A stretch of 64,000 nucleotides of DNA from Fidelibacterota bacterium (GTDB lineage: Bacteria > Fidelibacterota > Fidelibacteria > Fidelibacterales > DSDE01). A model generated the notes under the pieces. The model searched no databases and was not told where the DNA came from. It saw only the letters and a list, made by a program, of their open reading frames with translations. Positions 1,127-29,113 of this stretch are shown one piece after another; the stretch's first letter is position 1, and the number at the start of each line of letters is the position of its first letter. The stretch covers positions 86,406-150,405 of the forward strand of contig JBJKQR010000062.1 in the NCBI GenBank assembly GCA_046735395.1. Direction: 5' to 3'. The position numbers were made by a program, and so were the translations under genes.

Positions 1127-1270
1127 CATTATCCGGTGTTTTTTATTTTGAAATCTTGCAACGCTTTCCTCGCCGGACTAATTGCGATGGATCTTCAGTC
1201 GCCGCGGGTGAAACACTATTCTATGGATTATTTCAGAACAATTATCGGATCTTGATTCCCTGGAATCTCA

Positions 1271-2919: not shown

Positions 2920-2948
2920 TTGACAATCTGAATTGAAAGAGATATATT
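2920..2948 (+). promoter_or_regulatory. Sigma-70-type promoter for the rplM operon
   Basis: TTGACA, 17 nt spacer, TATATT, about 50 nt upstream of the rplM start. Confidence 0.5.
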
Positions 2949-2999
2949 TATCGGCTCTTCGAGTGAAGGGCAAAACATTGCAAAACGGAGGTTAAGGAT

Positions 3000-3431
3000 T
3001 TGAAGACATATTCCGCCAAACCATCAGACATCAACCCGGAGTGGCTGCTTGTCGATGCTGAAGGTGTTCCCCTTGGGCGGCTGGCAAGCAAGATCGCCCA
3101 GCTCCTGCGAGGAAAGCACAAGCCAATTTTCACTCCTCACATGGATACGGGAGACTTTGTTATTGTCATCAACGCGGACAAAGTCCGCTTGAGCGGCAAC
3201 AAAGCTGAGAGCAAAACATATTTTCGCCATACGGGATATCCCGGCGGTGCACGGTTCACGTCCTACAAGGAAATGATGGAAAAGGCACCCACACGGATTA
3301 TCGAACACGCTGTGAAAGGGATGCTTCCCCACAACCGTCTGGGTCGTCAGGTCATCAAGAAACTGAAAATCTATGCCGGCGCCGAACATCCTCATGAGGC
3401 ACAGCAACCCAAAACCCTGGAAACCCTTTAG
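3000..3431 (+). CDS. rplM: 50S ribosomal protein L13
   Basis: TTG start after a GGAGG RBS. The sequence is a full-length L13 ([16 protein letters not shown]..., [10 protein letters not shown]). Confidence 0.95.
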
Positions 3432-3443
3432 GAGTATGGTGAT

Positions 3444-3833
3444 ATGGTAAAAGAATATACAAGTATCGGACGCCGTAAATCTGCCACCGCCCGCGTCAGA
3501 ATGAAAAGCGGCAACGGACAGATCATTGTCAACAAGCGTCCATTGGAAGTTTATTTCGGACGGCAGACATCACAGATGATTATTCGGCAGCCTCTGGAAC
3601 TCACCGGAATGATGAACAAATTTGACATTCACGTCAATGTCAAAGGCGGCGGACTGACCGGCCAGGCCGGAGCAGTCAAACACGGTATCAGCCGGGCCCT
3701 TCTGCAGGTGGATCCTGAACTGCGGGCTATCCTGAAGAGCAACGGGTTCCTGACACGCGATGCCAGAAAAGTCGAACGCAAGAAGTACGGTTTACGTGGT
3801 GCCCGCCGCGCATTCCAGTTCTCGAAACGTTAA
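3444..3833 (+). CDS. rpsI: 30S ribosomal protein S9
   Basis: [10 protein letters not shown] ... the C-terminus RRAFQFSKR is canonical S9. Confidence 0.95.
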
Positions 3834-12956: not shown

Positions 12957-13170
12957 GACAGATCCTCCGTTTTAATTTAAGTTAAAGCGATCACAGACGT
13001 TTCTCCACAGAATTCTCTGCAGGCCTTTCCCCTGCAAGTCCCTTTCCTGCAATGATTATTGTAGAAATCAGGTGCGAACCTTCGGCAGACATTCGGGAAA
13101 TGAAGACAGGGCCTGATTGGTATTTGGATTCCCGGGCAGAAATTTTTATGTTCCTTCTGATGATAGGGAT

Positions 13171-14547
13171 ATGGGCACTGTGAAACGAATTCGTATTGAG
13201 ATCTGCGGTTCCGGAGGACCGGAACTGGCTGGACGTCTGACGGCCCTGCTTCCGGACAGAGCCCTTTATGATACGGCCATCACCGATACGGCCGAAGAAT
13301 TGCCGAAACGCTCCGCGCCCAAACTCCCGGACATGCTCATTGTACCTGAAACGGAACTAAAGCGTATCGCTCCCCTTTTTCCCGATATTATCGCCGACTG
13401 CATGGAACGCAGGCCGGATATGATCATTATTGTCTTTACAATGAAACAGACACTTCCGGCGGCGATGCGTGCCATAGAAGCCGGCGCTTACCAGTACGTG
13501 AGAATGCCGGCGGAAAATGATGAGATCCGACTGCTTCTCGAATCCTCGCTGCAGAAGCTCGGCTCAGGCGGAGGCCGGGAAAATGCCGACCAGGAGACGC
13601 CCGATAAATTCGGCGGCATCATCGGACAGACCGATGTCATGCAAGCCGTTTTTGAACAGGTTCGCCAGGCTGCAGAAACCGACATCCCGGTTCTGATCGT
13701 AGGCGAAACCGGAACCGGTAAGGATCTGCTTGCCTTTACGCTGCACAAGCTGAGCCTGCGCAGAGATGAGCCCTATCTGGCTGTAAACCTGGGTGCCCTG
13801 CCTCCGGAACTGGTGGCCAGTGAACTATTCGGTCATGAAAAAGGCGCCTTCACCGGGGCCGTTCATCAGCATAAGGGTGTGTTTGAGCAGGGCAACAAGG
13901 GAACGGTCTTTCTCGATGAAATTGATTCCATGAGCGAGAAAATACAGGTTTCCCTGCTGCGCCTTCTGGAACAGAAAAAATTCAAGCGACTGGGCGGCTC
14001 CAGGTCCATCAACAGCGCGGCCCGTATTATCGCTGCCTCCAATGAAGATCTGGACAGCCTGACCCGTCAGGGCAGTTTTCGCAGTGACCTTTTTTACCGC
14101 CTGGATGTATTCCGTATATCCCTTCCCGCCCTTCGGGACCGAAAAGAGGATATTCCCCTTATTGCCGAAGAATTACGATTGAAATATGCACAGAAATACA
14201 ATCGGAATATTCAGAGTATTTCGAGGTCCGCCATGACTGCTCTTGTGGATTTCGAATGGCCCGGAAATGTACGGGAACTGAAAAATGTCATACAGCGGGC
14301 CATCCTGGTCTGTGACGAAGCGGAAATACAGCTGGAACACCTGCCCCAGCGCTTTCATCATTTTACCACCGAATCCCCCACCATTACGGTTCAGATCGGA
14401 ACTCCGCTGGCTGCCATAGAAGAGGATATCCTGATCGCCACCCTTGAAGCAAATCAGAACAATCGTGCAAAAAGCGCCAAAGATCTGAAAATCAGTCGGC
14501 GAACACTGTATAATAAACTTGAAAAATACGGCCGTAAAGATAAATAG
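13171..14547 (+). CDS. Sigma-54-dependent transcriptional activator (NtrC family) with an atypical receiver-like N-domain and a Fis-type HTH
   Basis: The ATG at 13171 follows AGGGA. The AAA+ core carries GETGTGKD, the GAFTGA loop (EKGAFTGA) and ESELFGHE-like motifs. The C-terminal HTH reads ISRRTLYNKLEKYG. Confidence 0.85.
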   Translation: MGTVKRIRIEICGSGGPELAGRLTALLPDRALYDTAITDTAEELPKRSAPKLPDMLIVPETELKRIAPLFPDIIADCMERRPDMIIIVFTMKQTLPAAMRAIEAGAYQYVRMPAENDEIRLLLESSLQKLGSGGGRENADQETPDKFGGIIGQTDVMQAVFEQVRQAAETDIPVLIVGETGTGKDLLAFTLHKLSLRRDEPYLAVNLGALPPELVASELFGHEKGAFTGAVHQHKGVFEQGNKGTVFLDEIDSMSEKIQVSLLRLLEQKKFKRLGGSRSINSAARIIAASNEDLDSLTRQGSFRSDLFYRLDVFRISLPALRDRKEDIPLIAEELRLKYAQKYNRNIQSISRSAMTALVDFEWPGNVRELKNVIQRAILVCDEAEIQLEHLPQRFHHFTTESPTITVQIGTPLAAIEEDILIATLEANQNNRAKSAKDLKISRRTLYNKLEKYGRKDK

Positions 14548-14906: not shown

Positions 14907-16235
14907 ATGACCATTTACAATGCACACCAGCAAAGCATAGCCGAGCGGATTGAGAAAAAAGTTCCCATCGGCCAGTGGAAGGACTGGACCTGGCAGATGC
15001 GGCACCGGGTACAGGATATTGAAACGTTTGAAAAGCTGCTGGGAATAAAATTCAGCGTGGCGGAGCGCCGGAGCCTGCAGGAAACGATACGGAAATTTCC
15101 CCTTTCCGTACCGCCCTATTATATTTCTCTCATTAATACAAAGGACTTCAAGAACGACCCGGTCTTCAAGCAGGCATTTCCCAACTCTGCCGAACTGATC
15201 ATTGCGGATCAGGACATGTCGGATCCGCTGGCCGAGGATAAGGACAGTCCGGCCCCCGGCATCACTCACCGCTACCCGGACAGGGTTCTGTTCACTATCA
15301 GTAATATGTGCGCCATGTACTGCCGTCACTGCACCCGGAAACGCAAGGTGGGCGATGTGGATTTCATCCCCAACAAAGGCATGATCAAGGCCGGAATCGC
15401 CTATATAAAGAAAACCCCGCAGATCCGGGACGTTCTCCTGTCCGGCGGCGATCCCTTTCTGCTCTCCGATGATTTTCTGGACTGGATTCTGACGGAGATC
15501 CGCAGCATCCCCCATGTGGAAATTATCCGCATCGGCACCCGGGTTCCCGTTGTGCTCCCTTACCGGGTCACAGATGATCTGGTCGCAGTCCTGAAAAAGC
15601 ATCACCCGCTTTGGATCAATACCCATTTCAATCATCCCCGGGAAATCACCGAATCAGCCCGGGAAGCTCTGAGCAAACTGGCGGATGCCGGGATTCCCCT
15701 CGGCAATCAATCCGTACTTCTCGCCGGTGTCAACGACTGTCCCCGCATAATGAGATCTCTGGTGCATAAGCTGGTACAGAATCGTGTAAGGCCCTACTAT
15801 CTGTATCAGTGCGATCTGTCGGAAGGCCTGTCCCATTTCCGCACACCCATCGGCAAGGGAATTGAAATCATTGAAAGCCTCATCGGCCACACCAGCGGAT
15901 TTGCCGTTCCCACCTATGTCATCGATGCTCCCGGCGGCGGCGGCAAAATCCCCATCATGCCTAATTATATCGTATCCTGGTCCACCAACAAAGTCGTTCT
16001 CAGAAACTATGAAGGAGTGATTACCACCTACAAGGAACCGGACAGTTACGAACCGGTGTTCTGTGACCGGAATTGTGAAAAATGCGATCTTCAGCTGGAA
16101 CTGGAAGGGTCGGAGGACTACAATTTCACCGGAATCGCCGAACTGCTGTCGGATGCCGATGAGAAGATATCCCTCATCCCCGAAAACAATGAACGTCTCG
16201 AGAGACGGAATGATGACGAACAGGAGACGATTTAA
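14907..16235 (+). CDS. kamA: Lysine 2,3-aminomutase (radical SAM)
   Basis: Carries the [11 protein letters not shown] CxxxCxxC cluster motif. LLSGGDP and the [11 protein letters not shown] and [10 protein letters not shown] signatures are KamA/AblA-type. Confidence 0.9.
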
Positions 16236-17653
16236 TGCACAGTGTCGATTACCTCATTTTTGGTTTGTACTTCCTGATTGTTCTGGGAATTGGTGTCTAT
16301 TTTTTCAGGAAAAACGAGGATCGTGAAGACTATTTCGTGGGGGGCCGCAGCATCTCCGCGTCTCACGTCGGCATGAGTATTGTGGCGACGGATGTGGGCG
16401 GCGGTTTCAGCATCGGCCTGGGAGGCCTGGGCTACCTGATGGGACTGTCCGGTAGCTGGCTGCTCTTCACGGGCCTGGTCGGTGCCTGGCTGTCTGCGGT
16501 TCTGGTTGTCCCCCGCATCAAGGCAGTGGATGAAAAATTCGACATGCTCACCTATCCGGATTTTCTGAAACTCAGATACGGGACTAAAGTCGCTCTGGCT
16601 GCTTCGCTCATCTCAGGTATCGGCTATCTGGGTTTCACAGGCGCACAGATCCTCGCCGGCGCGAAACTTGCTGCTGTGACGGTTTTTTCCTCGGTCACGA
16701 TCATGGATCCGCTGCACCTGGCCCTGTATGTCATGGCCGGCATCGTCCTGATCTACACTGTCCTGGGCGGGCTCAAGGCTGTAATTTATACCGATACGGT
16801 CCAATGGGTGGTCCTTCTGGCGGGGCTGCTTTTTTTCGGAGTTCCCTGGGCAATCAAGGAAGTGGGCGGCTGGCATGCCCTGAAAGCCGGTCTGCCGCCA
16901 GAATACTTTTCACTGACCAATGTGAGCGGGATTCAGATATTGAACTGGTTTTTCACCATCATTCCCATCTGGTTCATCGCCATGACCCTGTATCAGCGGA
17001 TTTATGCCGTACGGAACGAGAAGGAAGCGAAAAAAGCCTTTTATATCGCCGGGTTTCTGGAATATCCCATCATGGCCTTCATCGGCGTCTTTCTCGGTAT
17101 GTGCGCCCGGATTTTCTTTCCGGATGTAGAGAGCGAACTGGCCATGCCCCTCATGCTGCGCGACATCCTCCCCATCGGCATCACCGGGATCGTCACCGCA
17201 TCCTTTTTCTCCGCTATCATGTCCACGGCCGACAGTTGTCTCATCGCCTCCTCAGGCAATTTTGTAAACGACATCATCGAACCACTCTGGCTGAAGGGGA
17301 AGAGCAACAAGACGCTGATCCGCGTATCGCAGATCGCCACCCTGGTCATCGGCGCGGCCACTCTGATCATCGCATCCTCCTTCACAACTGTCCTCGAGCT
17401 GATTCTCAATGCCTACAGCTTCATGGTCGCCGGGCTATTCATCCCGACTCTCGGCGCGCTTTTTCTGAAAAAGCATGATGAACCATCTGCCGTTACCGCC
17501 ATGATTCTCGGCGGCGGTTTCACGCTCATCCTGATTTTTTCCGATCTCTCCATGCCCTATGGACTGGATTCATCCATCGGCGGCATTCTCGTTTCGGGTC
17601 TCGTATTTTTCGGCATGAACGGACTTCGAAGCAGACGGATCCATCATGACTGA
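16235..17653 (+). CDS. Sodium:solute symporter (SSS family) permease
   Basis: About 13 TM segments with an SSS N-terminal pattern (DYFVGGRS, TDVGGG). TAATG overlap with kamA and an 8-nt overlap with the next gene. Confidence 0.85.
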   Translation: MHSVDYLIFGLYFLIVLGIGVYFFRKNEDREDYFVGGRSISASHVGMSIVATDVGGGFSIGLGGLGYLMGLSGSWLLFTGLVGAWLSAVLVVPRIKAVDEKFDMLTYPDFLKLRYGTKVALAASLISGIGYLGFTGAQILAGAKLAAVTVFSSVTIMDPLHLALYVMAGIVLIYTVLGGLKAVIYTDTVQWVVLLAGLLFFGVPWAIKEVGGWHALKAGLPPEYFSLTNVSGIQILNWFFTIIPIWFIAMTLYQRIYAVRNEKEAKKAFYIAGFLEYPIMAFIGVFLGMCARIFFPDVESELAMPLMLRDILPIGITGIVTASFFSAIMSTADSCLIASSGNFVNDIIEPLWLKGKSNKTLIRVSQIATLVIGAATLIIASSFTTVLELILNAYSFMVAGLFIPTLGALFLKKHDEPSAVTAMILGGGFTLILIFSDLSMPYGLDSSIGGILVSGLVFFGMNGLRSRRIHHD

Positions 17654-18488
17654 CCGTATTGAGAAACTCGGCGACTCCCTTATCCATCACGGGCCGGCCA
17701 ATAACCGCATCTATCTGATGAAACTCGGGAAGGATGACCCGACTAAATTGATCATGCATCTGAAATCCCTCGCGCAGAAAAATGGCTACGGAAAAATTGT
17801 GGTAAAAATTCCTGAGAGCGTATCCCCTGTCTTTATCAGGAATGGATTTGCCGCGGAGGCGTCCATACCCGGTTTTTTCCAGGGAAAGGAATCCGCCATC
17901 TTCCTGTCCCTTTTCAGGGATGAAAAACGCAGAATCCTGAGCGATCAGGAAGAAAGCGAAACACAGGCCAACCTTGAACTGGCTCAGGGCCGCAAACAGG
18001 ATGAGATGCTGCCGGAGCTTTCACAGAAATTCCGGCTGAGACTCCTGGATGAATCGGATATCAACCAGCTTCAGAACCTGTATAAAATCGTTTTTCCCAG
18101 CTACCCCTTTCCCATTCACGATCCGGATTACCTCTGCGAAACCATGCAATCACATGTGAAATACTTCGGCGCCTTCTGTCAGGGAACACTGCTTGCCTGC
18201 GCGTCATCGGAGACGGATCCGGTCAATCTGAATGCTGAGATGACGGATTTTGCCACCCATCCCGATGCAGGAGGGCAGCGCCTGGCCCTTCACCTGCTGC
18301 GGCTCATGGAGGAGACAATGGTTTCCAGCGGCTACCGTTGCCTCTACACCATTGCGCGATCTTATTCGGCTCCCATGAATATCACTTTTTCTCGGAACGG
18401 CTATTTCTATACCGGAACACTGGTGAATAATACGGATATTTTCGGAAAGATCGAAAATATGAATGTCTGGACTAAAGCACTGACCTGA
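17646..18488 (+). CDS. ablB: Putative beta-lysine N6-acetyltransferase (GNAT, AblB/YodP type)
   Basis: The N-terminal HHGPANNRIYLMKL and the C-terminal GNAT core ending NNTDIFGKIENMNVWTKAL resemble the AblB family. It lies in the same operon as kamA. Confidence 0.7.
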   Translation: MTDRIEKLGDSLIHHGPANNRIYLMKLGKDDPTKLIMHLKSLAQKNGYGKIVVKIPESVSPVFIRNGFAAEASIPGFFQGKESAIFLSLFRDEKRRILSDQEESETQANLELAQGRKQDEMLPELSQKFRLRLLDESDINQLQNLYKIVFPSYPFPIHDPDYLCETMQSHVKYFGAFCQGTLLACASSETDPVNLNAEMTDFATHPDAGGQRLALHLLRLMEETMVSSGYRCLYTIARSYSAPMNITFSRNGYFYTGTLVNNTDIFGKIENMNVWTKALT

Positions 18489-18521: not shown

Positions 18522-18553
18522 AAAAAAGGCTGCCCGAGCGGACAGCCTTTTTT
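18522..18553. terminator. Bidirectional rho-independent terminator between convergent operons
   Basis: An A6 run, then GGCTGCCC-gagc-GGACAGCC (one mismatch), then a T6 run. Confidence 0.6.
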
Positions 18554-18572: not shown

Positions 18573-20240
18573 TTATTTCAGATAATTCATGGTGCGTGCC
18601 AGCTTCTGGGTCGGAGTTTCCATCCTGTAGATGTAGACACCGGAAGCAACGCGTTCGCCGGCAGCATTGGTTCCATTCCAGACAATGCTGTGTTCACCCG
18701 CGTCGGTGAGTGTGTTCATCAGCGTGGAGATCAGCTTGCCGTTCAGGTCAAATACGCGCAGTGTGACGTTTTCACGCGTGGGAATGGCAAAGCTGATGGT
18801 CGTAGTGGGGTTGAAGGGATTGGGGAAATTCTGTGAGAGTCTGTAGCCGGCCGCAACCGTATTATCCACGGAGCGGATAGCAGTCATGGGGTCCGTATTG
18901 GGTGAATCAAGGAAGATAATGGGGGCGGACATATTTCCGGCATTCCCATCAATCGTAACGGACACATTCCACATGGATGTATACGCCACTTCCTGACCCA
19001 TATCGTCATCGATATTGGCGATCTGGATCCGGTTCCAGCATCCACCATCGGTGGGGTAATCGTAGACTTTATAAGCCGAATCGATCACGGTCAGTTCCCA
19101 ACTGTTCGGATCAGTAATGGCTCCGCCCTGATATTCAAAGCGGAAGATCATGCCGTTCGGAGGGCCGCTGAGATAGGATCCGAATACGAAGTCGATCTTC
19201 CCATCCGCATCAATATCACCCTGGGCACCACCGAGCATACGGCCGCCGTTCAGCAGGTCAGGCGTATTGAGATTCACCAGCGGAGTACGTTTCAGCGTGT
19301 CACCGTCTTCCTGAAAAATATAGATCTGACGGGTAGCATCGCCATAGCGATATTCACCGGTAAACATTTCCTCAGTTCCATCTCCGTCCACGTCAGCAAC
19401 CTGGACGGCATCCCAGCTGATTCCGCCGGGCATGGGGGACAGGCTTGTTCTGGTATAGGCAGATCCGTCCCAGGAAATTTTGGCAATCTCTGTTTCATCA
19501 AAGAAGTAGGCATTTCCGCCCATGACAGCCACATCCCATTTGTTTTCACCGAGAACATCAGAATATTCCGTAGTCCAGGTTTCGCTTTCATCGCCGTTAT
19601 CCGGGATATTATCAACCGAGGCAACCAGAATTCTCGGGCCATCGGTTCTGCCGGCCATCAGAATTTCCTTTGTACCGTCATTATCGATATCCGCGAATTT
19701 CCAGGAAACAGGACGGATATTCGCATTGTCTGCATCGGTGATCGTCCAGTAGGCATTCGGCCAGGATTCACCGGAGATCTCAACACCCATGTCATCTCCT
19801 GTACCCTGTTCGTAAACAAGAATTCTTGCAGGATTTGCGTTGGTCTGGATGTTATTCGGGATTCCCCACCAGATTTCCATTTTACCATCACCGTCAACAT
19901 CCTCTACACTCAGCGGATTATAGGAATTCTGGGCTTCCACAATATCAGCAGGAGCAGTTTTTTCCCAGACCTTTACCCATCCATCCGCTGTTTTTTCGAA
20001 TTTGTACAGGCGCGGTACAATTTCACCTGGCGTATCATTCCAGTTGTGATTGACCATGTACAGATCCATCAGACCATCTCCGTCGCAGTCCACATTGGTG
20101 ACAAAATTACCGATACCCCCATTGTTCGGGCCCGAGGAAGCCCAACCAGGGATAAATAGGGTATCCATCACCGAAAACGTCCCCGCATTCAGGACAGAAA
20201 CCGCCATAATCGCTGCAAGCACAAATAACACTTTTTTCAT
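18573..20240 (-). CDS. Secreted FG-GAP/VCBS-type beta-propeller protein with a T9SS-type C-terminal sorting domain
   Basis: It has a signal peptide. At least six DxDxDG Ca-loop repeats are present (DCDGDG, DVDGDG, DIDNDG, DVDGDG, DIDADG, ...). The C-terminus reads NFPNPFNPTTTISF...VFDLNGK...SGVYIYRM. Confidence 0.75.
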   Translation of the reverse strand: MKKVLFVLAAIMAVSVLNAGTFSVMDTLFIPGWASSGPNNGGIGNFVTNVDCDGDGLMDLYMVNHNWNDTPGEIVPRLYKFEKTADGWVKVWEKTAPADIVEAQNSYNPLSVEDVDGDGKMEIWWGIPNNIQTNANPARILVYEQGTGDDMGVEISGESWPNAYWTITDADNANIRPVSWKFADIDNDGTKEILMAGRTDGPRILVASVDNIPDNGDESETWTTEYSDVLGENKWDVAVMGGNAYFFDETEIAKISWDGSAYTRTSLSPMPGGISWDAVQVADVDGDGTEEMFTGEYRYGDATRQIYIFQEDGDTLKRTPLVNLNTPDLLNGGRMLGGAQGDIDADGKIDFVFGSYLSGPPNGMIFRFEYQGGAITDPNSWELTVIDSAYKVYDYPTDGGCWNRIQIANIDDDMGQEVAYTSMWNVSVTIDGNAGNMSAPIIFLDSPNTDPMTAIRSVDNTVAAGYRLSQNFPNPFNPTTTISFAIPTRENVTLRVFDLNGKLISTLMNTLTDAGEHSIVWNGTNAAGERVASGVYIYRMETPTQKLARTMNYLK

Positions 20241-20279
20241 GCTCTTTCCTTTCCTTTTATGATTTCCTTACCCTGTATC

Positions 20280-21242
20280 TTAGAAATTAAAACACAGGCT
20301 GAATCTATGTCGTCCACCGAAGTAGTCCATAGTATTAAAGGCATAATCGATGGAAAATTTCGATAATGAAACACCACCCCCGAAGGTCAGCCCGTAAATA
20401 TCCGTTCCGAACTGGAATCCGCTTCGAAGGAAGAAATTTTTCATATAATTCAGTTCAACACCGGCTCCATACAGTTCATTGGCATTATTGGAATGAATCA
20501 TATCCAGGGCGGCAGTAACTGTCATATCCTTTGTATCATAGACGTCCATACTGATTCCTGTTCTGAAAGTCATGGGCAGAGGCCAGCTTTCGAAAGCGGA
20601 GGAATCGTTCGTGGCATATTTCACCGCATCGGAATAATTCAGAAACTTCCCGCTGAATGTCGCTTCCTTTGAAAAGTGAAGAATGCTCATGGCAATCCGG
20701 ATATTTTTATACCCGGTCCGATACATGGTTCCCATATCGTAGGCGATCTGTGAATAGCCGCTCCCGTCGAAGCTTTCGCTCACATTTTTTATGGTGGCGC
20801 CGATGGAGAATTTGTTCGTCAGATAGCGGGAATAGCTCAGGCCGATGCTGTAGGATGACATGGAGAAGTAATCATCGCCAAAGGGCAGATCCGGTGTGGT
20901 CCGCAGTTCGTCTCCATAATTCACATATACGGCGCTGATGGATACGGCAGACGCCGCATTCAATTTATAGGCAGCCCCGAGTGAACCGAGAGAGATGTCG
21001 GCAGGCCATTTCAGATAACTGACATAAGTATCGAATCTGCTGTTATCCTTAAAATCCACGAGCCCTGCCGGATTGATCAGCACGGCACCGGCACCGCCGA
21101 CCAGAGATGTGGCCGCATTGCCCATTGCCATATTCCGGGTCTGCATATTAATATCCAGGAACTGTCCCGTTGCGGTTCCGACCGGAGAAGAAGCGGACAG
21201 AACTGCAAATGACAGAAATATGATTGTAAGTATTTTTTTCAT
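20280..21242 (-). CDS. PorV/PorQ-family outer-membrane beta-barrel protein
   Basis: The ATG at 21242 lies 9 nt after GAGGTG. It has a signal peptide. The N-terminal TGQFLDINMQTRNMAMGNAATS...INPAGL matches the PorV-family motif. The sequence shows a beta-strand alternation pattern and ends with a terminal ...CFNF. Confidence 0.6.
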   Translation of the reverse strand: MKKILTIIFLSFAVLSASSPVGTATGQFLDINMQTRNMAMGNAATSLVGGAGAVLINPAGLVDFKDNSRFDTYVSYLKWPADISLGSLGAAYKLNAASAVSISAVYVNYGDELRTTPDLPFGDDYFSMSSYSIGLSYSRYLTNKFSIGATIKNVSESFDGSGYSQIAYDMGTMYRTGYKNIRIAMSILHFSKEATFSGKFLNYSDAVKYATNDSSAFESWPLPMTFRTGISMDVYDTKDMTVTAALDMIHSNNANELYGAGVELNYMKNFFLRSGFQFGTDIYGLTFGGGVSLSKFSIDYAFNTMDYFGGRHRFSLCFNF

Positions 21243-21256
21243 TTTATCATCCACCT

Positions 21257-23317
21257 CTACTTTAAGATCACGAATTTACCGACTTTCTCTCCCATCTCAG
21301 ATGTAACGTGGTAGAGATAGATACCGGGTGCAACCTCCCGGTTATTTCTGCTGATCAGATCCCACTCCGCTGTGGCGGCATTCGTCTGAGCAGCATTTTC
21401 AATGGCCCGTACATCACTGGGACGGATGGTCTGAACCAGATCACCATCCAGAGTGAAGATCCGGACGATGGCATCTTCGGGCAGATTAATAAAGAAGAGC
21501 CGGTCCTTCCAGGGACTGGAGGGCGCCGGTGTCCGGTTATTCCAGCGTACGGATCCTCGGAAGGGATTGGGAACGACCCGGATTTCATCCATGGTGTTCA
21601 CGACCGCTTTTCCCGTCGCCGTGATAAAATCCGAGCTGACAACTTCCACATCGTAGTATTTGTCGGAATGGCCCTTGACGAACAGATTGAAGGTATAATC
21701 ATATCCGAATTGAATTTCCGCATCATAATATCCCAGCAGGCCATTGGTGGACGCGTCAAGCAATGCCTGAGCCTGCGTCCCGTCCAGGACCATCAGTGTA
21801 TCGTAAATCGGGAATCCTGCCGCAGTCCGTTCCTTGAATTTGGCCAGCACAAATTCCTGAAAATTCGGATGATTCAATGCGGGCGCCGGATCCCAGCTGA
21901 TATTCGCGCCCTTGAAGTTTCCTTCATCATCTTCAACCGCATCAATCGTGATCTCAGTCTTGGGAGGAATTTCATTCACGTCAATCTGGTAATCTTCATC
22001 TACAATGAATTTAGCCACATCCATATTTTCAAGCAGCTGCGTGAAGGAGTAGATACCGGCTCTCTGCGCATCGGCTGACACACCCACCGCAAACACAACT
22101 TCAATGCTGTCTCCGTAGGCCAGCGTTTCCACAGGACCGTAGGTCGTAATTGCCCTGTAATCACCTTCATTCACTTTTCCGTTTCCGAAAGGCGGGGACG
22201 GATTCTTTAATAGTTTATCAAATGCCTTATCCCCTGTCTTCCCGATGGCATTCGTCCACTGGGCGTCATCATCCGAAAAATCCATTCCGATTTTACTCGT
22301 TGTGTAGGACCGGGGTTTCATCAGGGGATTGGTTCTCAGCATCTTCATGGCCAGAATACCCGGCGTCTGGTAAATCCCGGTGGGATTGGGATTACCGAAA
22401 TCATCGTCAGGATGGGCATAGAGATAGGAACCGGAAACGGTGCCGCGGTTCAGCAAACTGGTATCCACTTCGCTGGGCACACCCGAATAATCACCATCAA
22501 ACATGATCGTCAGGGTGGAATCCCCGACCCAATTCTGAATGTAATCCCATACTGCCGGATCGCTGTTTATCTGATACTGCATGTAGGGGAACAGTTTCAA
22601 TTCGTCCCAGTCGGTCTTACCGGCAGTGGTTGTATGAGTCAGACACATGGCATGATCATCACGGTTGGAAAAATTGGATTCGGTGGGCCAGGTCAGCAAT
22701 TTGCTCACATCGCCATCCATGCGAAAGGTGAAGAATACATCCTTCAGATCGGATGTATCATCCACGATCCCGTCTCCGGTCGTGTCCACACCGACATTCT
22801 TCAGATAATAGCGATACAGGATAAAATCATCGGCAAAGGAAACACCGTAGGCATAGGTATGCTGCGTCACTTCCAGTCCGAGTGGGATGTGGGCGTCACT
22901 GACTTTAATCGCATCGGTAAATTTCGTCCAGCTATGCTCGGCCAGATCACCCAGGAAGGTTTCCTTATGCACTTCATCAAGGGGTGTGAATTCCTTATCC
23001 TCCGTCGTGCTGGTACCCCGGATTCCGTTCCGCGTGCCGGTCAGCCACAGGGAGCCACGGTACAGATAGGAGTTTCCTGATCCACCGGGCCAGTCTGCTG
23101 ACGGCGTCCGGCCTTCATAAGTATCGTCTCCGATCATGGAAAAATTTGTAATCCGCATCCACAGGGTACCGATCTTGTGCCAGTCCATATCAATGGGTAC
23201 GGCGGCAGATGCTTTTTTCAGGGTGCGGCCAGCGGATTCCATGATTACCGGATTTCCCGCGGCAATCATCAGAATCATAAACACCGGCAATATGTAAATA
23301 ATGTATTTCTTCTTCAT
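21257..23317 (-). CDS. Large secreted protein of unknown function with a T9SS/FlgD-Ig-like C-terminal domain
   Basis: The signal peptide has no lipobox Cys. I recognise no catalytic motif. The C-terminus reads VVPNPFRGSV...IFTLDGDLV...APGIYLYHVTS...FVILK. Confidence 0.55.
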   Translation of the reverse strand: MKKKYIIYILPVFMILMIAAGNPVIMESAGRTLKKASAAVPIDMDWHKIGTLWMRITNFSMIGDDTYEGRTPSADWPGGSGNSYLYRGSLWLTGTRNGIRGTSTTEDKEFTPLDEVHKETFLGDLAEHSWTKFTDAIKVSDAHIPLGLEVTQHTYAYGVSFADDFILYRYYLKNVGVDTTGDGIVDDTSDLKDVFFTFRMDGDVSKLLTWPTESNFSNRDDHAMCLTHTTTAGKTDWDELKLFPYMQYQINSDPAVWDYIQNWVGDSTLTIMFDGDYSGVPSEVDTSLLNRGTVSGSYLYAHPDDDFGNPNPTGIYQTPGILAMKMLRTNPLMKPRSYTTSKIGMDFSDDDAQWTNAIGKTGDKAFDKLLKNPSPPFGNGKVNEGDYRAITTYGPVETLAYGDSIEVVFAVGVSADAQRAGIYSFTQLLENMDVAKFIVDEDYQIDVNEIPPKTEITIDAVEDDEGNFKGANISWDPAPALNHPNFQEFVLAKFKERTAAGFPIYDTLMVLDGTQAQALLDASTNGLLGYYDAEIQFGYDYTFNLFVKGHSDKYYDVEVVSSDFITATGKAVVNTMDEIRVVPNPFRGSVRWNNRTPAPSSPWKDRLFFINLPEDAIVRIFTLDGDLVQTIRPSDVRAIENAAQTNAATAEWDLISRNNREVAPGIYLYHVTSEMGEKVGKFVILK

Positions 23318-23339
23318 TCGTATCTCCTGTATCCGCGAC

Positions 23340-26168
23340 TTAAAAGTTTATTGACAAACCCAGCTTGAACTGGCGTTTCGAAGGATACACCTGAGGTGTT
23401 CTGATCAGTTCATTTGTTTCCTCAACCTTGTAAATCACATCGGGGAATCCCGTAAGTCCATATTGTTCAACATTCTGGATATACGAGAATTTTCCATTTC
23501 CACCCAGATTAAACACGTCCAGATTCAAGGTGAGCGAAACAGATTTGAGATTGAATCTCCGGCTGATTCTCATATCGATATTATTGTAATCCGGCAGTCT
23601 CTGATCATTATACGCACCCTGTATCCCAAAGCTCGTATAGGGTTTTCCCGTGCCGTATTCACATTGAAAATTGGCGATCCAGTCTCGGGTCAGCGCTTCG
23701 AATCCGGGAATTCCCTTGTTTGAATACAGGCCGAAGTTTACATTGGCGGAGATCCGTCTGTCAAAACTCAGATAGTACATTTTCTTGTCATAGGGGAAGA
23801 GCTGATGTGATCCTGCTGACGAAGAGCGTCCTTTGGCGATGGAATAGGAAACATTCCCCTGCAGGCTCCAGAAACCGCTGCGCAGACGCTTCACTGCCAG
23901 TTCGGCCCCCTTGATATTGGCGTAATCGCCATTGACATATTTATGAACTTCCGTTCCGTCCGGGAAGACAAACAATTCATTATTCACCAGATTCGTCACA
24001 TCCTTGAAATATCCGGTAACGGACATCTTGAGATTTTTTGTAAAGAGGTGTTCAAATGAAATATCGTAAGCGACGGTTTTTTCCGGCTGCAGGGCAGGAT
24101 TACCCACCCAGTTCCCGGTCTTCGTCAGACTCTGGTACTGATAATTGGCAAACAGGTACATACCGTCCGGCCTCTGAAAATAATGGCCATAGGAAAAGAA
24201 GAGGATATCACGGTCAGAAATGGGGTGGGATATCCCGATGCGGGGTGAAAACTGCCATGAGGGCTTTGCTTCCTTCGCATCATTGAAAAGGGCAAAATCA
24301 TTGGCATCATGGCCGGCCAGAGGATTGTCCATATTTCCCGGATAAAGGACCGGCTTGCCCGTCCCATTGGGATTGAAGTAATCATAACGCAGTCCCACCA
24401 GTGCAACGAAATCATCCCGGAATTCCATCTTATCCTGGACATAGGCTCCGAAATCGTCGTCGTTCTTGTTCCAGATATCCTTCCGCAGGGAATTCAGTGC
24501 AAATCCCGCTTCATCGGACACGGAAGACCAATAGATATCCGTGACATCGGTCCCGTTCAGATTGTACTGAAATCCTGTCTTCAGCATGTGGTTCTGAGAA
24601 ACCTGTGAAGTGAGATCCCATTTCAGCAGGAAGGTGTTGACCTTCTGGTTTGTATAGGAATTATCATCACCGATCAGCCACCAGAAATCCTCATTCTCCA
24701 ATACCCGCTTTTCCGGCCGGGGCCCGGGTACTGACGGATCCCACTGCAGATATTCATCCGTGTTTCCGTCCCCGTCCCGGTCCTGATAATCTTTCATCCC
24801 GTTTTTATAGGAGGATTTAAAGAATTGAGTCCGCAATTCCATAAAAGTTCTCGCTGAGAAGGTGTAGGTCAGAATCCCGTACAGCGTGCTGCTTTCCTTG
24901 GTTCGGGTCGTAAGATGATTCAGCGGTGTATCCAGATAAATATCCCTATGATAATTCACAGCCACCGTATCCGAATCATTCAGTCCGATGGTATAGGGCT
25001 CAGCCAGGCTGTCAATCACACCACTCAGGTAATCGGAGGGATTGTCCACATAGTGATATCGCGTCAGTGTATCGTTCGTGGCGCTCAGATCCTGAACGAA
25101 TTCGTACAGATCTGTCTGAAAATCCGGCCCCGGGCCGAATTTGGCCGCCGGAAAATAAAAATTGTCCCAGTCCCGCTTTGAATAATTGGATCCCACTGCC
25201 AGTTTCATCTTATCCGAAATCTTCCAGGCAACTTTTCCCTGATAGTTCTGGGACGCTTCCTGCTGATGCAGATAATTTCCCTGTTTACGGTTGAAGATAT
25301 CACCTGAAACGGCAAAGGTCATGGAAGGCAGAATGGGCCCGCTCAGACTGAAACGATAATTATTATCCAGCCGCTGCTGGTATTTGGCGTCCAGCCACCA
25401 GTCATTCTTGGGCATGAGTGTTTCGGTCAGAGGACCAAAATCCGTTGTCGTCGCGTAGAGCGAACCGGAGAATTTCTGCGATCCTTCCTTCATGGCCAGA
25501 TTCAGCACACCGGACTGCACATTGCCGTATTCGGCGCTGAATCCGCCCAGAGAGACTTCCATCTCCTTAACGGCATCTTTCGGGACTCCCAGAGAAAAGC
25601 CTCCCAGATCCCCGACATAGGCAGCAGAAGGATCACGAACCGGAATACCGTCAATGACAACCAGCACTTCATCACTGCGGCCGCCACGAAAATTATTCCC
25701 CACCACACCGGCCTGATTCTGGGCGATGCCGATCACATTTTCAATCGGCTGTATTTCCATCTCCTCGGACGACACAATATGCTTGGACGAAAATTCATCC
25801 TGATTCAGAAGCGGCCGTTCGGCCACAACCACAATATCCTCTCCGGTCGACAGCACTTCCGGCTGCAGGATCAGATCCTGATAGGTCGTCAGGTCTATGG
25901 ACACAAAAATATTCTCCACCGTCACCGTCGTGAATCCGATATAGGTCACTTTCATGGTATAAAGTCCGGGCGGAATATTCAGAATGGCGTAATATCCGTC
26001 GGCGTTCGTGGATGCTCCGATCTCACTTCCTTCCAGATAAACGTTCACGCCGGCAAGCGGTGCTCCGTTATTATCGAGAATAGTCCCCACAATCTTCCCG
26101 CTTGTGCCGCCGAAAACGACTCCCGACGTCACCATAAGCAGCAGGCATAATGTGATCAATTTCTTCAT
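23340..26168 (-). CDS. TonB-dependent receptor with an N-terminal carboxypeptidase-regulatory-like domain
   Basis: It has a signal peptide. The CarboxypepD_reg pattern is present (GKIVGTILD..PLAGVNVYL..TNADGYY...PGLYTMKV). The plug domain carries RGGRSDEVLVVIDGIPV. A long barrel ends ...LSINF. Confidence 0.85.
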   Translation of the reverse strand: MKKLITLCLLLMVTSGVVFGGTSGKIVGTILDNNGAPLAGVNVYLEGSEIGASTNADGYYAILNIPPGLYTMKVTYIGFTTVTVENIFVSIDLTTYQDLILQPEVLSTGEDIVVVAERPLLNQDEFSSKHIVSSEEMEIQPIENVIGIAQNQAGVVGNNFRGGRSDEVLVVIDGIPVRDPSAAYVGDLGGFSLGVPKDAVKEMEVSLGGFSAEYGNVQSGVLNLAMKEGSQKFSGSLYATTTDFGPLTETLMPKNDWWLDAKYQQRLDNNYRFSLSGPILPSMTFAVSGDIFNRKQGNYLHQQEASQNYQGKVAWKISDKMKLAVGSNYSKRDWDNFYFPAAKFGPGPDFQTDLYEFVQDLSATNDTLTRYHYVDNPSDYLSGVIDSLAEPYTIGLNDSDTVAVNYHRDIYLDTPLNHLTTRTKESSTLYGILTYTFSARTFMELRTQFFKSSYKNGMKDYQDRDGDGNTDEYLQWDPSVPGPRPEKRVLENEDFWWLIGDDNSYTNQKVNTFLLKWDLTSQVSQNHMLKTGFQYNLNGTDVTDIYWSSVSDEAGFALNSLRKDIWNKNDDDFGAYVQDKMEFRDDFVALVGLRYDYFNPNGTGKPVLYPGNMDNPLAGHDANDFALFNDAKEAKPSWQFSPRIGISHPISDRDILFFSYGHYFQRPDGMYLFANYQYQSLTKTGNWVGNPALQPEKTVAYDISFEHLFTKNLKMSVTGYFKDVTNLVNNELFVFPDGTEVHKYVNGDYANIKGAELAVKRLRSGFWSLQGNVSYSIAKGRSSSAGSHQLFPYDKKMYYLSFDRRISANVNFGLYSNKGIPGFEALTRDWIANFQCEYGTGKPYTSFGIQGAYNDQRLPDYNNIDMRISRRFNLKSVSLTLNLDVFNLGGNGKFSYIQNVEQYGLTGFPDVIYKVEETNELIRTPQVYPSKRQFKLGLSINF

Positions 26169-26533
26169 AAATTTCTCTCCTGACCTGTCTTCTATGATTA
26201 TTTTACTATAACAATTCCGTATGCCGCAGCATGAAGTCAGTATAGTTAGTTCTCATATCTTACTAATACTAAATCTATTTATATGAAAATGCAAGTCTAA
26301 ATTCCTGTTTTTTTACTAAGAATCGTGGTTGGGGCAGAGAATGACGAGTTCTGGTTTTTTTCTTTATGGAAAAGGCTTCACAGGTCCCGGATGAAAGGTA
26401 GACACGGCCGTTATGAGCCGAAAAAACGGGGTCTGTCGCAACCCATTTTTTCCATGGCGGAAAGCGGGTGAAATTTCTACATTGTCTCACAGATGAATTC
26501 AGATTTAACCGTTCATCGAGAAAGGAAACCACA

Positions 26534-29113
26534 ATGCAGACACTGCTTTTAATCGTACCCCTGGCATCGCTGGCCGCATTGATCACCGCGTATGGCCTGA
26601 GCCGATGGATCTCGACTCAGGAAACGGGCACCAAACAGATGGTGCGCATCGCCTCCTATATCCGTGAGGGAGCGGTGGCATATCTGAAACAGCAATACAA
26701 GACCTCCGGCATCTTTTTTCTGCTGCTCTTTGTCCTGCTGCTCTTTTTTGCCTTCGGTCTCAATACCCTCTCCGTCTACGTCCCCTTTGCCTTTCTGACC
26801 GGAGTTTTCTTTTCCGGCCTCTCCGGCTTCATCGGCATGCTCACCTCAACGAAAACATCAAACCGGACAACCCACGCAGCCCGCAAATCTCTGAACCAGG
26901 CCCTGCGTCTCTCCTTCCGCGGCGGCTCCGTCATGGGGCTGGTCGTCGTCGGGCTCGGTCTCCTCGACATTGTCATCTGGTTCTATTATCTCAACAGCGT
27001 CATCGACATCGCAGATATCAACGAAAAACTGCATCTGATCACGGCCACCATGCTCAGTTTCGGATTCGGCGCCTCGTCTCAGGCACTGTTTGCCCGCGTC
27101 GGCGGCGGCATCTTCACCAAGGCGGCCGACATGGGTGCCGATCTGGTGGGCAAGGTGGAAGCGGGAATTCCCGAAGATGATCCGAGAAACCCTGCCGTCA
27201 TCGCCGATAACGTGGGTGACAACGTCGGGGACGTGGCCGGAATGGGCGCGGATCTGTACGAATCCTTCGTCGGCTCCATCCTCGGCGCGGCAGCGCTTGC
27301 CGTCTCGGCCGGTTACGGACTGAACGGGGTGCTCCTGCCCATGCTGGTGGCCGCTCTCGGCACCGCGGCCTCCGTTCTGGGTATCTTCACCGTTTCCACC
27401 GGCGAAGATGCAAATCAGAAACATCTGCTCAACGCCATCAACCGAGGCACCAATATTACGTCTGTCGTAACACTCATCCTGGTCTTTATCCTGCTCCGGG
27501 TCATGATGCCGGGACAGGTTTTTCAGCTCTATGTTCCCATTGTCATCGGTATTCTGGTGGGAATCGCCGTCGGATATTCCACCGACTATTACACCAATGC
27601 CGCCTTCAGCCCCGTTCACCGCATCGTCGGCCAGGCCCGCACCGGACATGCGACCGTGGTTACGGCCGGATTTTCGGTAGGTATGATGTCCGTCGTGCCC
27701 TCCATCCTCTTCATTATTATCGGAACCGTCATTGCCTTTATCAGCGGCGGAGGCCATGTCAATCTGAGCGAGGGCCTCTATGCCATCGGCCTGGCTGCGG
27801 TAGGCATGCTGTCCACCCTGGGCATCAATCTGGCAACGGATGCCTTCGGTCCCATCGCGGATAATGCGGGCGGTATCGCGGAGATGGCCGAGCTCCCGTC
27901 GGAAACCCGGAAACGGACTGACGCGCTGGATGAACTGGGCAATTCCACAGCCGCGCGGGGTAAAGGTTTATCCATCGGCGCGGCGGCACTGACAGCCGTC
28001 ACCCTTATTGCCGCGTTTATTGAGGAGATCCGGGCTGCCATGGTTCACAGCGGAATTTCCAGCATGAAAATTTACACAGGTGATATTCTCATCAAAACCG
28101 TAGATACAGCCGCCGCCTCCGTGACGGATCTGCTGCTGTACATGCAGAGTTCGCTTCTGGATATCCGCTTCATCAGCGGACTGTTCATCGGCTCTGTCAT
28201 CATTGCCGGCTTCGGTTCCAAAACCATTGAGGCGGTATCGGAGGCAGCCGGGGAAATGATCGACGAGGTCCGGCGGCAGTTCCGGACCATTCCGGGCATC
28301 ATGACCGGGGACGCAACTCCGGACTATGCCAGCTGCGTCCGCATTTCCACCTTCGCGGCTCAGAAAAAAATGGTCATTCCCGCCCTTATCGTAATCCTGA
28401 CGCCCATTCTCACCGGACTCCTTTTCGGTCCCGTGGCCGTCATCGGCCTGCTCAGCGGCAATCTCATCGTCGGTTTCCTTTTTGCCGTTTTCATGGCCAA
28501 CAGCGGCGGCGCCTGGGATAACGCAAAAAAATATATTGAACGCAGCAAATCGGACCTGCGTAACGAGATACAGCTGGGAATCCGGGACATCAGCAAGCGG
28601 GGACTCTGGCCTTTTTATCTCACCCGTGATACCCGCAGATTTCTCTTTGAACTGGTCAATCTGAATCCCAAGGCGTTCAGCATTGATGAAGAAGTATCCG
28701 AATATCTGGGCGAAATCATTCGTCTCACGGAAAACCGCTACATCAATGAAAATCTCAATCTGGCCACGCTGCTGGCGGCGCTCGAAAAAAACGCCCTGAA
28801 ATCCCTGAATGATGCGGATTTGTCCCTGCTTTACGGGAAGCTGAATGGCGAAGACCAGCTCATGTACCGTCAATATCTGCAGCTCAGCCGTCAGGATCAG
28901 GAATTTCTCATGAAACTGAACGGAATCCGAAGTGATTTCGAGTCCATCATGAGTTCCTATTCGGCTGCAGTCACCGGGGATACAGTCGGCGACCCGCTCA
29001 AGGACACCAGCGGCCCCTCCCTGAATATTGCCATCAAGCTCTCCACCATGGTTTCCATCATCAGCATCGGAATTGTCCTGAAATTCAATCTCTGGTCAGC
29101 GCTCTTTCACTGA
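26534..29113 (+). CDS. hppA: Membrane-bound proton/sodium-translocating pyrophosphatase with a large loop insertion
   Basis: Carries DNVGDNVGDVAGMGADLYES, GNSTAARGKG, GGAWDNAKKYIE and GDTVGDPLKDTSGPSLNI motifs. The ATG at 26534 lies after AAAGGA. Confidence 0.9.
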   Translation: MQTLLLIVPLASLAALITAYGLSRWISTQETGTKQMVRIASYIREGAVAYLKQQYKTSGIFFLLLFVLLLFFAFGLNTLSVYVPFAFLTGVFFSGLSGFIGMLTSTKTSNRTTHAARKSLNQALRLSFRGGSVMGLVVVGLGLLDIVIWFYYLNSVIDIADINEKLHLITATMLSFGFGASSQALFARVGGGIFTKAADMGADLVGKVEAGIPEDDPRNPAVIADNVGDNVGDVAGMGADLYESFVGSILGAAALAVSAGYGLNGVLLPMLVAALGTAASVLGIFTVSTGEDANQKHLLNAINRGTNITSVVTLILVFILLRVMMPGQVFQLYVPIVIGILVGIAVGYSTDYYTNAAFSPVHRIVGQARTGHATVVTAGFSVGMMSVVPSILFIIIGTVIAFISGGGHVNLSEGLYAIGLAAVGMLSTLGINLATDAFGPIADNAGGIAEMAELPSETRKRTDALDELGNSTAARGKGLSIGAAALTAVTLIAAFIEEIRAAMVHSGISSMKIYTGDILIKTVDTAAASVTDLLLYMQSSLLDIRFISGLFIGSVIIAGFGSKTIEAVSEAAGEMIDEVRRQFRTIPGIMTGDATPDYASCVRISTFAAQKKMVIPALIVILTPILTGLLFGPVAVIGLLSGNLIVGFLFAVFMANSGGAWDNAKKYIERSKSDLRNEIQLGIRDISKRGLWPFYLTRDTRRFLFELVNLNPKAFSIDEEVSEYLGEIIRLTENRYINENLNLATLLAALEKNALKSLNDADLSLLYGKLNGEDQLMYRQYLQLSRQDQEFLMKLNGIRSDFESIMSSYSAAVTGDTVGDPLKDTSGPSLNIAIKLSTMVSIISIGIVLKFNLWSALFH

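Follow-up and report, generated by a model that had tools for sequence, protein, structure and literature searches.

A conserved operon pairing a TonB-dependent receptor with a predicted secreted protein and a PorV-family barrel in Fidelibacterota and related phyla

In type IX secretion (by the T9SS), the PorV barrel binds the C-terminal domains (CTDs) of cargo proteins with its extracellular loops inside SprA and carries type-A cargo away (PMC10994853, PMC10202324). Alternative carriers stay attached and anchor type-B cargo, and PorQ retains the uncleaved CTD of PorZ (PMC10994853, PMC10202324). BamG, a FadL-like 14-strand barrel of the Bacteroidota β-barrel assembly machinery (BAM) complex, holds the surface protein BamH permanently with its extracellular loops (PMC12578637). 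In P. gingivalis, PG0534, a 92-kDa barrel resembling a TonB-dependent receptor (TBDR), is required for T9SS function (PMC5445135). Here, a four-gene operon is described. It was found in a 64,000-nucleotide (nt) stretch of DNA from a Fidelibacterota bacterium (assembly GCA_046735395.1, contig JBJKQR010000062.1, positions 86,406 to 150,405), which is called the window. The operon, at positions 18573-26168 of the window, encodes a TBDR, a 686-amino-acid (aa) secreted protein, a PorV-like barrel and an FG-GAP propeller protein. Among the described systems, PorQ-PorZ and SprF-SprB may be regarded as its closest mechanistic precedents. Oceans, sediments and digesters are rich in Marinimicrobia, Calditrichota, KSB1 and related lineages, and to our knowledge little has been described of how these phyla capture substrates at the cell surface.

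Four minus-strand open reading frames (ORFs) make up the operon, each where a preliminary description of the window had placed it. In operon order, these are the TBDR gene (23340..26168, 942 aa), the 686-aa protein gene (21257..23317, no Pfam family), the barrel gene (20280..21254, 324 aa with a GTG start or 320 aa if the ATG at 21242 is used; PorV/PorQ family by NF033709) and the propeller gene (18573..20240, 555 aa; FG-GAP_3 and TIGR04183). All four products carry predicted Sec signal peptides. Successive genes are separated by 22 nt, 2 nt (14 nt if the barrel starts at its ATG) and 39 nt, and the medians in orthologous loci are 18, 13 and 38 nt (up to 69 loci). The ORF coordinates and the terminator fold agree with the first account of the locus, i.e., four co-directional genes with close gaps and a bidirectional terminator.

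The 686-aa protein belongs to a family of at least 143 full-length homologs, which show 36-73% identity and many invariant residues. The closest homologs are encoded in Marinimicrobia metagenome-assembled genomes (MAGs), with 57-73% identity, and the window is thus most likely of this phylum. In an ortholog scan with one genome per species, relatives were found in 165 genomes and 79 loci were kept. By record title, 36 of the kept loci are Marinimicrobia, Neomarinimicrobiota or Fidelibacterota, eight are Calditrichota, six are KSB1 and 23 are unclassified. The remaining six carry doubtful-looking labels, i.e., five 'Cytophagia' and one 'Caldisericaceae'. Synteny was counted only at loci where the contig extends far enough. 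The TBDR ortholog was directly upstream of the 686-aa family gene at 72/72 loci (two of which have the 686-aa gene itself split), and the PorV-like ortholog was directly downstream at 61/61. The next gene was an FG-GAP homolog (> 200 bits) at 45 of 51 loci, and at the other six a different CTD protein or no gene was detected. Synteny in related genomes, on which the first account of the locus depended, was found as a fixed order of the first three genes across three phyla, i.e., Marinimicrobia, KSB1 and Calditrichota. Since the arrangement is conserved at every related locus examined, it is far beyond chance. The orthogroup is present once in each fetched locus, which is a count per locus and not per genome.

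The cassette is repeated among distant paralogues. A profile search with the 686-aa family returned 5,135 cluster representatives (E <= 1e-3), of which 2,284 have E <= 1e-10. The members of this superfamily are mostly 600-1,400 aa long and share an N-module (profile positions ~37-230), with the hallmark loop GGSGNSYLY, and a C-module (~495-664). The C-module, i.e., an FN3-like domain and a divergent CTD, is the stretch most widely shared with paralogues, and its consensus is VVPNPY..W...R.xFxNLP..CTIRIYTLxGDLV...WDLxSRNxQxVxSGIYxY...GKFVIIK. Pfam assigned nothing to the superfamily except FN3 and, in a few members, the canonical Por_Secre_tail. Because the N-module is also found on proteins with canonical Por_Secre_tail, it is considered an extracytoplasmic cargo domain.

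For the paralogues, 80 metagenome loci with C-modules were fetched, and their ORFs were scored by hidden Markov models (HMMs) built from the orthologs. An alignment of 20 diverse C-modules proved too divergent as a seed for the scan, and a closer subset was used. The PorV-like barrel was directly after the C-module protein in 53/72 cases, and a TBDR (985-1,239 aa) was directly before it in 19/26. The exceptions were mostly tandem arrays, e.g., TBDR-A-barrel-A-barrel in locus L159. All of the cassette paralogue barrels tested passed NF033709, scoring 199-227 bits. Second C-module/barrel pairs adjoin the main module in L048 and L078, and the pairing was also found in Melioribacteraceae (L168) and WOR-3 (L169). 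The WOR-3 locus (MAG GCA_001771735, L169:869-2458) holds a minimal pair, i.e., a 155-aa C-module-only protein and a 370-aa PorV-family barrel, followed by an LVIVD-repeat protein with a T9SS tail. This pair suggests that what links such a protein to the barrel is its C-module by itself. A further protein search, with mostly short fragments as hits and thus indicating a rough spread only, pointed to Zixibacteria, WOR-3 and Melioribacteraceae.

In the paralogue cassettes, a conserved, predicted lipoprotein of ~505-645 aa (signal peptide and Cys), which has no Pfam match, often lies directly after the barrel. The lipoprotein HMM found 41 ORFs, all in paralogue loci and none in ortholog loci, where the FG-GAP CTD protein is encoded instead. 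Examples are L091:10294-11814, L108:10341-12062, L120:10337-12049, L126:10346-12223, L127:10353-12290, L139:10282-12054, L147:10305-11924, L153:10376-12106 and L159:10325-12211. Because the lipoprotein replaces the FG-GAP gene in these cassettes, the unit is considered to be comprised of a TBDR, an N/C-module protein, a PorV-like barrel and a variable fourth gene. The preliminary description had suggested a cargo-specific PorV paralogue, and this idea gains strong support from distant paralogues which have their own PorV-like barrel and their own TBDR.

Some loci show further arrangements. The tandem array at L159:3-10290 consists of one TBDR, two pairs of an N/C-module protein and a PorV-like barrel, and a lipoprotein gene. 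Several loci of Marinimicrobia and Calditrichota have another TBDR, a paralogue of 887-1,076 aa, which is divergently oriented upstream of the main module, i.e., L008:1-3536 and, on the minus strand at ~70-3700, L039, L048, L069 and L080. In L008, the second TBDR is followed by a 1,140-aa protein without a Pfam match, and neighbouring cassettes may cluster in this way. On an 840-kb contig (L170:5760-8396), a 249-aa N-module-only protein was found, and a 168-aa C-module-only ORF (called gene 131 aa) 1.4 kb further on, with neither barrel nor TBDR adjacent. This may be a member which has been split or has decayed, or else a form that stands by itself.

The third product of the operon, ending ...HRFSLCFNF, was assigned as an outer-membrane barrel of the 14-strand type by NF033709, AlphaFold and Foldseek. 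Against NF033709, the model of the PorV/PorQ family, it scored 158.6 bits (cut-off 90), with residues 29-324 aligned to model positions 3-326. None of the equivalog models was reached, i.e., PorV NF033710 (49.7 vs 250), PorQ NF033711 (72.9 vs 220) and PorV2 NF052325 (37.7 vs 325). The AlphaFold model (pLDDT 87.3) was closest in Foldseek to PorV of the F. johnsoniae T9SS translocon (8gl6_F, TM 0.75; 6h3i_F, 0.71), followed by FadL, TodX and TbuX (0.57-0.65) and BamG (0.52). The family profile searched against the PDB gave E = 3.5e-31 for PorV and 1e-5 to 1e-6 for FadL-type channels (TodX 6e-6). The ~320-aa barrel had been named a PorV-family member from its N-terminal motif, and the model score, the profile search and the fold all bear this out. 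In the databases, its homologs are named 'PorV/PorQ family protein' by NCBI and, for some, 'long-subunit fatty acid transport protein' by JGI.

The relatives also carry PorV-family barrels apart from the cassette. In loci L001-L004, a PorU-like Peptidase_C25 gene (~1,600 aa) and an adjacent, divergent PorV-family barrel lie 3.5 kb from the module, so these lineages have at least part of the T9SS. The cassette barrel as the ordinary PorV of the organism was considered and rejected, because relatives have this separate PorU-adjacent barrel and the cassettes are present in multiple versions. In these lineages, the barrel of the cassette is thus one more paralogue and not the only PorV. At L001:14403-18001 and L004:14556-18004, the PorU-like gene is on the opposite strand and is followed by a 340-aa barrel (NF033709 68 bits, below the cut-off). 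Two genes next to the pair (232 and 394 aa) have no family match. The stretch may be the attachment-complex operon of the lineage.

In the 686-aa protein (21257..23317, minus strand), a signal peptide, an N-terminal β-sandwich region, an FN3-like domain and a divergent CTD were delimited with the AlphaFold model (pLDDT 83.9, pTM 0.82). The preliminary description of this product, i.e., a signal-peptide protein with no lipobox and no recognisable catalytic motif, holds: no Pfam family was found in it, the protein itself has no lipobox, and a lipobox-like motif is present in only 1/56 family members. By alignment and model, the N-terminal region spans residues ~40-440 (21998..23200) and includes the superfamily N-module (~37-230). 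In the 56-sequence alignment, the N-module shows the invariant loop RTPSxDWPGGSGNSYLY and many invariant Asp. The FN3-like β-sandwich (residues ~456-566, 21620..21952), the first half of the C-module, was recognised by the secondary structure of the model and by Foldseek matches to tandem FN3. A PDB sequence search with the family profile gave nothing meaningful (best E = 0.61).

The last part, residues ~580-686 (21260..21580), is a divergent T9SS-like CTD with seven predicted strands. Its motifs are VVPNPF, FINLP, WDL...APGIYLY and the C-terminal GKFVILK, i.e., of the PNP, GxY and K-x-x-K type, and W592, N594, P597 and W603 are invariant in a family-specific loop. The CTD region of the PorZ model matches the C-terminus of the protein at E = 1.2e-4. 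Across 56 family members, matches were obtained with PorZ (30/56), TIGR04183 (10/56) and PorU (7/56), all sub-threshold. It is reasonable to consider the domain as a divergent class, most often like the retained CTD of PorZ, i.e., CTD-like without qualifying as a CTD. Two invariant loops, one in the N-module (residues 71-81) and one in the CTD (587-601), were modelled at pLDDT < 50 and are candidate interfaces for a partner or a ligand.

The TBDR (23340..26168, minus strand) has a signal peptide, a CarboxypepD_reg domain (residues 26-101), a plug (127-217) and a barrel, and its C-terminus is ...SINF. As first described, it is a CarboxypepD_reg-plug-barrel receptor of 942 aa, and all three Pfam domains are above cut-off. 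The scores were 60.3 bits for CarboxypepD_reg PF13620, 24.3 for Plug PF07715, only marginally above its cut-off of 23.9, and 97.7 for the barrel PF00593 (cut-off 27). Between the N-terminal domain and the plug, the ortholog alignment showed the motif EDIVVVAER (residues 110-118, 25815..25841, minus strand), and the consensus e.v.vvA.Rp is kept in 67 aligned TBDR orthologs. The motif is a putative TonB box by analogy. With the SusC/RagA model TIGR04056, the TBDR reached 47.8 bits against a cut-off of 368.25, and thus it is not of the SusC type.

The fourth product (18573..20240, minus strand) has a signal peptide, a propeller and a type-A T9SS CTD (residues ~472-555, nt 18576-18827), assigned by Pfam and TIGR04183. 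Pfam scores were 55.9 bits for FG-GAP_3, 38.3 for FG-GAP and 41.8 for FlgD_ig (cut-off 27). The CTD passed TIGR04183 with 33.6 bits against 23, as expected of the textbook T9SS CTD claimed for this propeller protein at first, and PF18962 was just under its cut-off (26.5 vs 27). Many lineages encode a longer version of the fourth product (~895 aa), in which a BNR/Sortilin-type region is added.

From these gene contents, family memberships, synteny and repeated cassettes, a mechanism can be proposed in which the operon would by itself supply a complete unit for uptake at the outer membrane. The TBDR and the PorV-like barrel would be inserted into the outer membrane, each with an aromatic C-terminal residue as in BAM substrates. 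The 686-aa protein, which is not a lipoprotein, would reach the surface by the type IX pathway via its divergent CTD. This CTD would be recognised by the extracellular loops of the operon's own barrel and not by the general PorV. The barrel would take the 686-aa protein off the translocon and keep the uncleaved CTD bound, so that the protein is tethered, as in PorQ-PorZ and in SprB with its SprF-type barrel. The tethered protein could then show its N-terminal β-sandwich module beside the TBDR, capture a ligand and hand it over for TonB-powered import. The FG-GAP propeller protein would follow the general PorV/PorU route, as an accessory surface or secreted factor of this orthogroup only.

The central claim, i.e., that the barrel is a cognate T9SS carrier or anchor which keeps the 686-aa protein at the cell surface next to its transporter, in function like SusCD or TbpAB-Slam, is given a probability of about one half. 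What we infer is that the system depends on the T9SS, that the CTD is retained, that the protein is tethered to the barrel and contacts the TBDR, and in which direction transport runs, and it is gene order that suggests surface anchoring of the 686-aa protein and its complex with the TBDR. The CTD loop, which is invariant and yet modelled with low confidence, is as expected of a partner interface and counts for the anchor.

Several results weigh against this proposal. The CTD of the 686-aa protein scored 17.9 bits with TIGR04183, below the threshold of 23, and TIGR04183 at E <= 0.01 was reached by only 10/56 members of the family. The similarity to PorZ is far below the cut-off of the PorZ model. 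The T9SS/FlgD-Ig-type CTD first ascribed to this protein is thus borne out in its seven-strand sandwich and its motifs and not in the model score or in Pfam, where no match was found. No core T9SS genes (sprA/sov, porK/L/M/N, porU, porV) were found within the 64-kb window. Foldseek matches of the 686-aa model in the PDB were weak (TM <= 0.27), i.e., the N-terminal β-supersandwiches of GH94, GH65 and GH116, a polysaccharide lyase, FN3 tandems and the PorZ CTD. Because these fold matches are weak, no ligand or activity was assigned to the N-region. Gene scans of the window and Rfam revealed no linked enzymes, riboswitch or regulator at the operon. One copy per locus together with cross-phylum conservation would also fit a housekeeping machine. 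In addition, a mirror-tree comparison was made to see if co-variation is stronger between barrel and CTD, and between TBDR and N-module, than for other pairs. The distance-matrix correlations were uniformly high for all gene and domain pairs (r = 0.8-0.95). Since all pairs are uniformly high, the comparison shows co-inheritance as a unit only and locates no interfaces, and for the same reason it does not separate the alternatives below.

Of these alternatives, display without the T9SS survives best, and it is judged unlikely. The barrel itself would export and/or hold the 686-aa protein with SprA uninvolved, much as Slam (type XI secretion) serves TbpB beside TbpA, and the CTD-like domain would be a barrel-docking domain and not a secretion signal. 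This would suit a divergent CTD below the T9SS cut-off and a pairing of barrel and C-module which is the most constant feature of the cassettes, down to the minimal pair of WOR-3. FadL-type barrels are known as static anchors, i.e., BamG-BamH (PMC12578637), and the T9SS of this genome is only presumed. However, the barrel resembles PorV far more than it does BamG or FadL (TM 0.75 vs 0.52-0.65; E = 3.5e-31 vs 1e-5). The same operon encodes a canonical type-A CTD cargo, relatives encode PorU, and a 320-aa 14-strand barrel is not known to be able to translocate a protein of 70 kDa in its folded state.

It is rather improbable that the module is a part of the T9SS machinery itself, with the barrel as PorQ, a propeller-plus-CTD protein as the PorZ analogue and the TBDR as the counterpart of PG0534, in an attachment or lipopolysaccharide-delivery complex. 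PorQ is indeed the best-scoring named subfamily for the barrel (72.9 bits), but all PorQ, PorV and PorZ equivalog scores are far below their cut-offs. The ~895-aa forms of the fourth gene, with FG-GAP and BNR/Sortilin regions and a CTD, recall the two propellers and the retained CTD of PorZ, whereas in other cassettes the fourth gene is swapped for other CTD proteins or a lipoprotein. The TBDR-like PG0534 is counted among the essential components of the T9SS (PMC5445135), but the TBDR of the operon keeps its plug and a TonB-box-like motif. The position 3.5 kb from a PorU-like gene in L001-L004, the presence of the orthogroup once per fetched locus and the order fixed across three phyla would also suit machinery. 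The many paralogue cassettes, which vary in their middle domains and have TBDRs and barrels of their own, are the signature of substrate-specific systems rather than of one machine.

Improbable too is a mere co-location without a complex, in which the barrel would pass a hydrophobic or amphipathic compound as FadL-type channels do, a second substrate would be imported by the TBDR and the CTD proteins would be ordinary T9SS enzymes or binders exported via the general PorV: PorV lies within the FadL superfamily, the barrel also matches FadL, TodX and TbuX, the JGI name of some homologs points the same way and the invariant acidic residues of the 686-aa protein could form a catalytic or Ca-binding site, but the PorV match is far stronger than those to FadL channels, the 686-aa protein matches no catalytic family, and unless barrel and C-module protein are directly linked in function, it is difficult to account for their strict one-to-one neighbourhood throughout the paralogues, with a C-module-only partner among them.

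The anchoring of the 686-aa protein by its own barrel may extend to the paralogues. Tentatively, the cassettes would form a widespread and so far unrecognised class in non-Bacteroidota phyla of the Fibrobacterota-Chlorobiota-Bacteroidota type (Marinimicrobia, Calditrichota, KSB1, Zixibacteria, Ignavibacteriota and WOR-3), in which the surface partner is held not by lipidation but by a non-cleaved T9SS-type CTD locked on a dedicated PorV-family barrel. Very large ORFs like SprA/Sov were not found in any fetched locus, i.e., none > 1,434 aa within the fetched loci.

The operon and the convergent GNAT gene have a common bidirectional intrinsic terminator at 18522..18553, recognised by sequence and fold. 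It is composed of A6 (18522-18527), an 8-bp GC-rich stem GGCTGCCC/GGACAGCC with a 4-nt loop (18528-18547) and T6 (18548-18553). The fold of 68 nt has -23.9 kcal/mol (z = -4.1), and 0/200 shuffles were as stable. In a simple consensus terminator scan of the region, the hairpin at 18522-18553 was not called, because one position in the stem is a G.U or mismatch. Upstream of the operon, an intergenic region of ~300 nt (26169..26467, minus strand), AT-rich near the start codon, is the presumed promoter, and this leader is divergent from the H+-pyrophosphatase gene. A sigma-70 scan found 13 sites with 12.3 expected from shuffles, i.e., no enrichment. The Rfam scan of the operon and its leader gave no match at E <= 1 and no riboswitch naming a ligand.

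The direct neighbours of the operon are lysine 2,3-aminomutase, SSF symporter, GNAT, H+-pyrophosphatase and S9 peptidase genes. The rest of the window is housekeeping, i.e., rpsB, mutL, miaA, uvrB, purD, recA, gap, dnaX, nadE, comEC, a histidine kinase, the H+-pyrophosphatase and the S9 peptidase. Among the window genes scanned, no carbohydrate-active enzymes (CAZymes), glycoside hydrolases included, and no dedicated regulator were found. The locus had been called SusD-less and similar to a polysaccharide utilization locus (PUL). The first part stands, with no SusD domain or lipobox in the next gene; the likeness to a PUL is loose, as the TBDR is not of the SusC type, no CAZyme is linked and the host is outside Bacteroidota.

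Three products of the window end in -NF, i.e., the TBDR (...SINF), the PorV-like barrel (...CFNF) and an 810-aa ORF (...GFNF). All three had been counted as barrels. The -NF ends are present in each, and barrels were assigned by family models in the TBDR and the PorV-like protein. The 810-aa ORF (51482-53914, plus strand, ending ...ETGFNF) has FecR (residues 115-208) as its sole domain match, besides a weak Lsa33 match.

On the plus strand at 14907-18488, an aminomutase-acetyltransferase pair resembles the ablA/ablB route to the osmolyte N-epsilon-acetyl-beta-lysine, and a sigma-54 activator gene (13117-14547) lies just upstream of it. The H+-pyrophosphatase (26468-29113, plus strand) is unusually long, i.e., 881 aa, and its Pfam match is in two stretches, with the best at residues 36-696. 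About 130 residues (about 700-830, boundaries approximate), apparently hydrophilic and helix-rich, look like an insertion before the last conserved segment.

At the genomic level, the preliminary interpretation appears to be largely borne out and is extended by the paralogue cassettes. Of its four refuting conditions, the three examined here gave results mostly in its favour, with one of the two CTDs passing the T9SS model. T9SS anchoring and the complex with the TBDR are still what we infer from sequence. If the proposal is true, the cassette would be a third, independent solution of a transporter plus a surface receptor, beside SusCD and TbpAB-Slam, and would define how these phyla equip their TonB-dependent transporters with surface receptors. 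PorV-family proteins, so far general shuttles, would then include a large family of anchors that are permanent and specific for their cargo, and the type IX pathway would use many cargo-specific carrier or anchor barrels outside Bacteroidota. Thousands of 'hypothetical' proteins in one superfamily, and barrels of the 'PorV/PorQ family' by the hundred, would also gain a function. The cassette, i.e., TBDR, N/C-module protein and PorV-like barrel, offers a simple genomic marker by which uptake loci of uncultivated lineages can be found, much as PULs are recognised by their SusC/SusD pairs.

The components are all of known kinds, and it is their combination and its breadth which appear new. A description of a cassette of TBDR, 686-aa family protein and PorV-like barrel was not found in the literature covered, most subscription journals being outside that coverage. 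The T9SS carrier and anchor barrels, i.e., PorV, PorQ with PorZ and PorP/SprF with SprB, are similar in that a barrel of the PorV/FadL lineage is encoded here beside a CTD-like β-sandwich protein. However, the barrel here reaches no PorV, PorQ or PorV2 equivalog cut-off, and the CTD of its partner fits neither the canonical type A, being below the cut-off, nor type B as it is known. The pair also sits in a TBDR operon, is multiplied as a cassette and is found outside Bacteroidota. We know of no such embedding in a TBDR operon or multiplication as a cassette for PorQ or SprF.

BamG-BamH differs in that BamG is a weaker structural match to the barrel than PorV (TM 0.52 vs 0.75), and no BamA or BamD genes are linked here. 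PG0534, compared by description only, is likewise a large TBDR-like outer-membrane protein tied to the T9SS, whereas the TBDR here keeps its plug and a TonB-box-like motif and has many cassette paralogues.

The SusC/SusD (RagA/RagB) systems and utilisomes of Bacteroidota share a TBDR with a CarboxypepD_reg-type domain followed by the gene of a presumed surface partner, and there are many paralogous cassettes here too, some with a lipoprotein. In contrast to them, no SusD (TPR) is present here, the partner is not a lipoprotein, TIGR04056 is far from reached (47.8 vs 368), no CAZymes or hybrid regulators are linked and an extra barrel is obligatory.

The TbpA/TbpB and Slam systems of Proteobacteria (type XI secretion) follow a similar three-part plan, with a TBDR, a surface partner and a dedicated outer-membrane barrel required for display of this partner, often encoded together. 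The cargo of Slam is lipoproteins with a C-terminal β-barrel domain. The Slam barrel is of another family with no match here, whereas the barrel of this operon matches PorV-family models only, and its presumed cargo has a leader of the signal-peptidase-I type and a T9SS-like CTD, without a lipobox.

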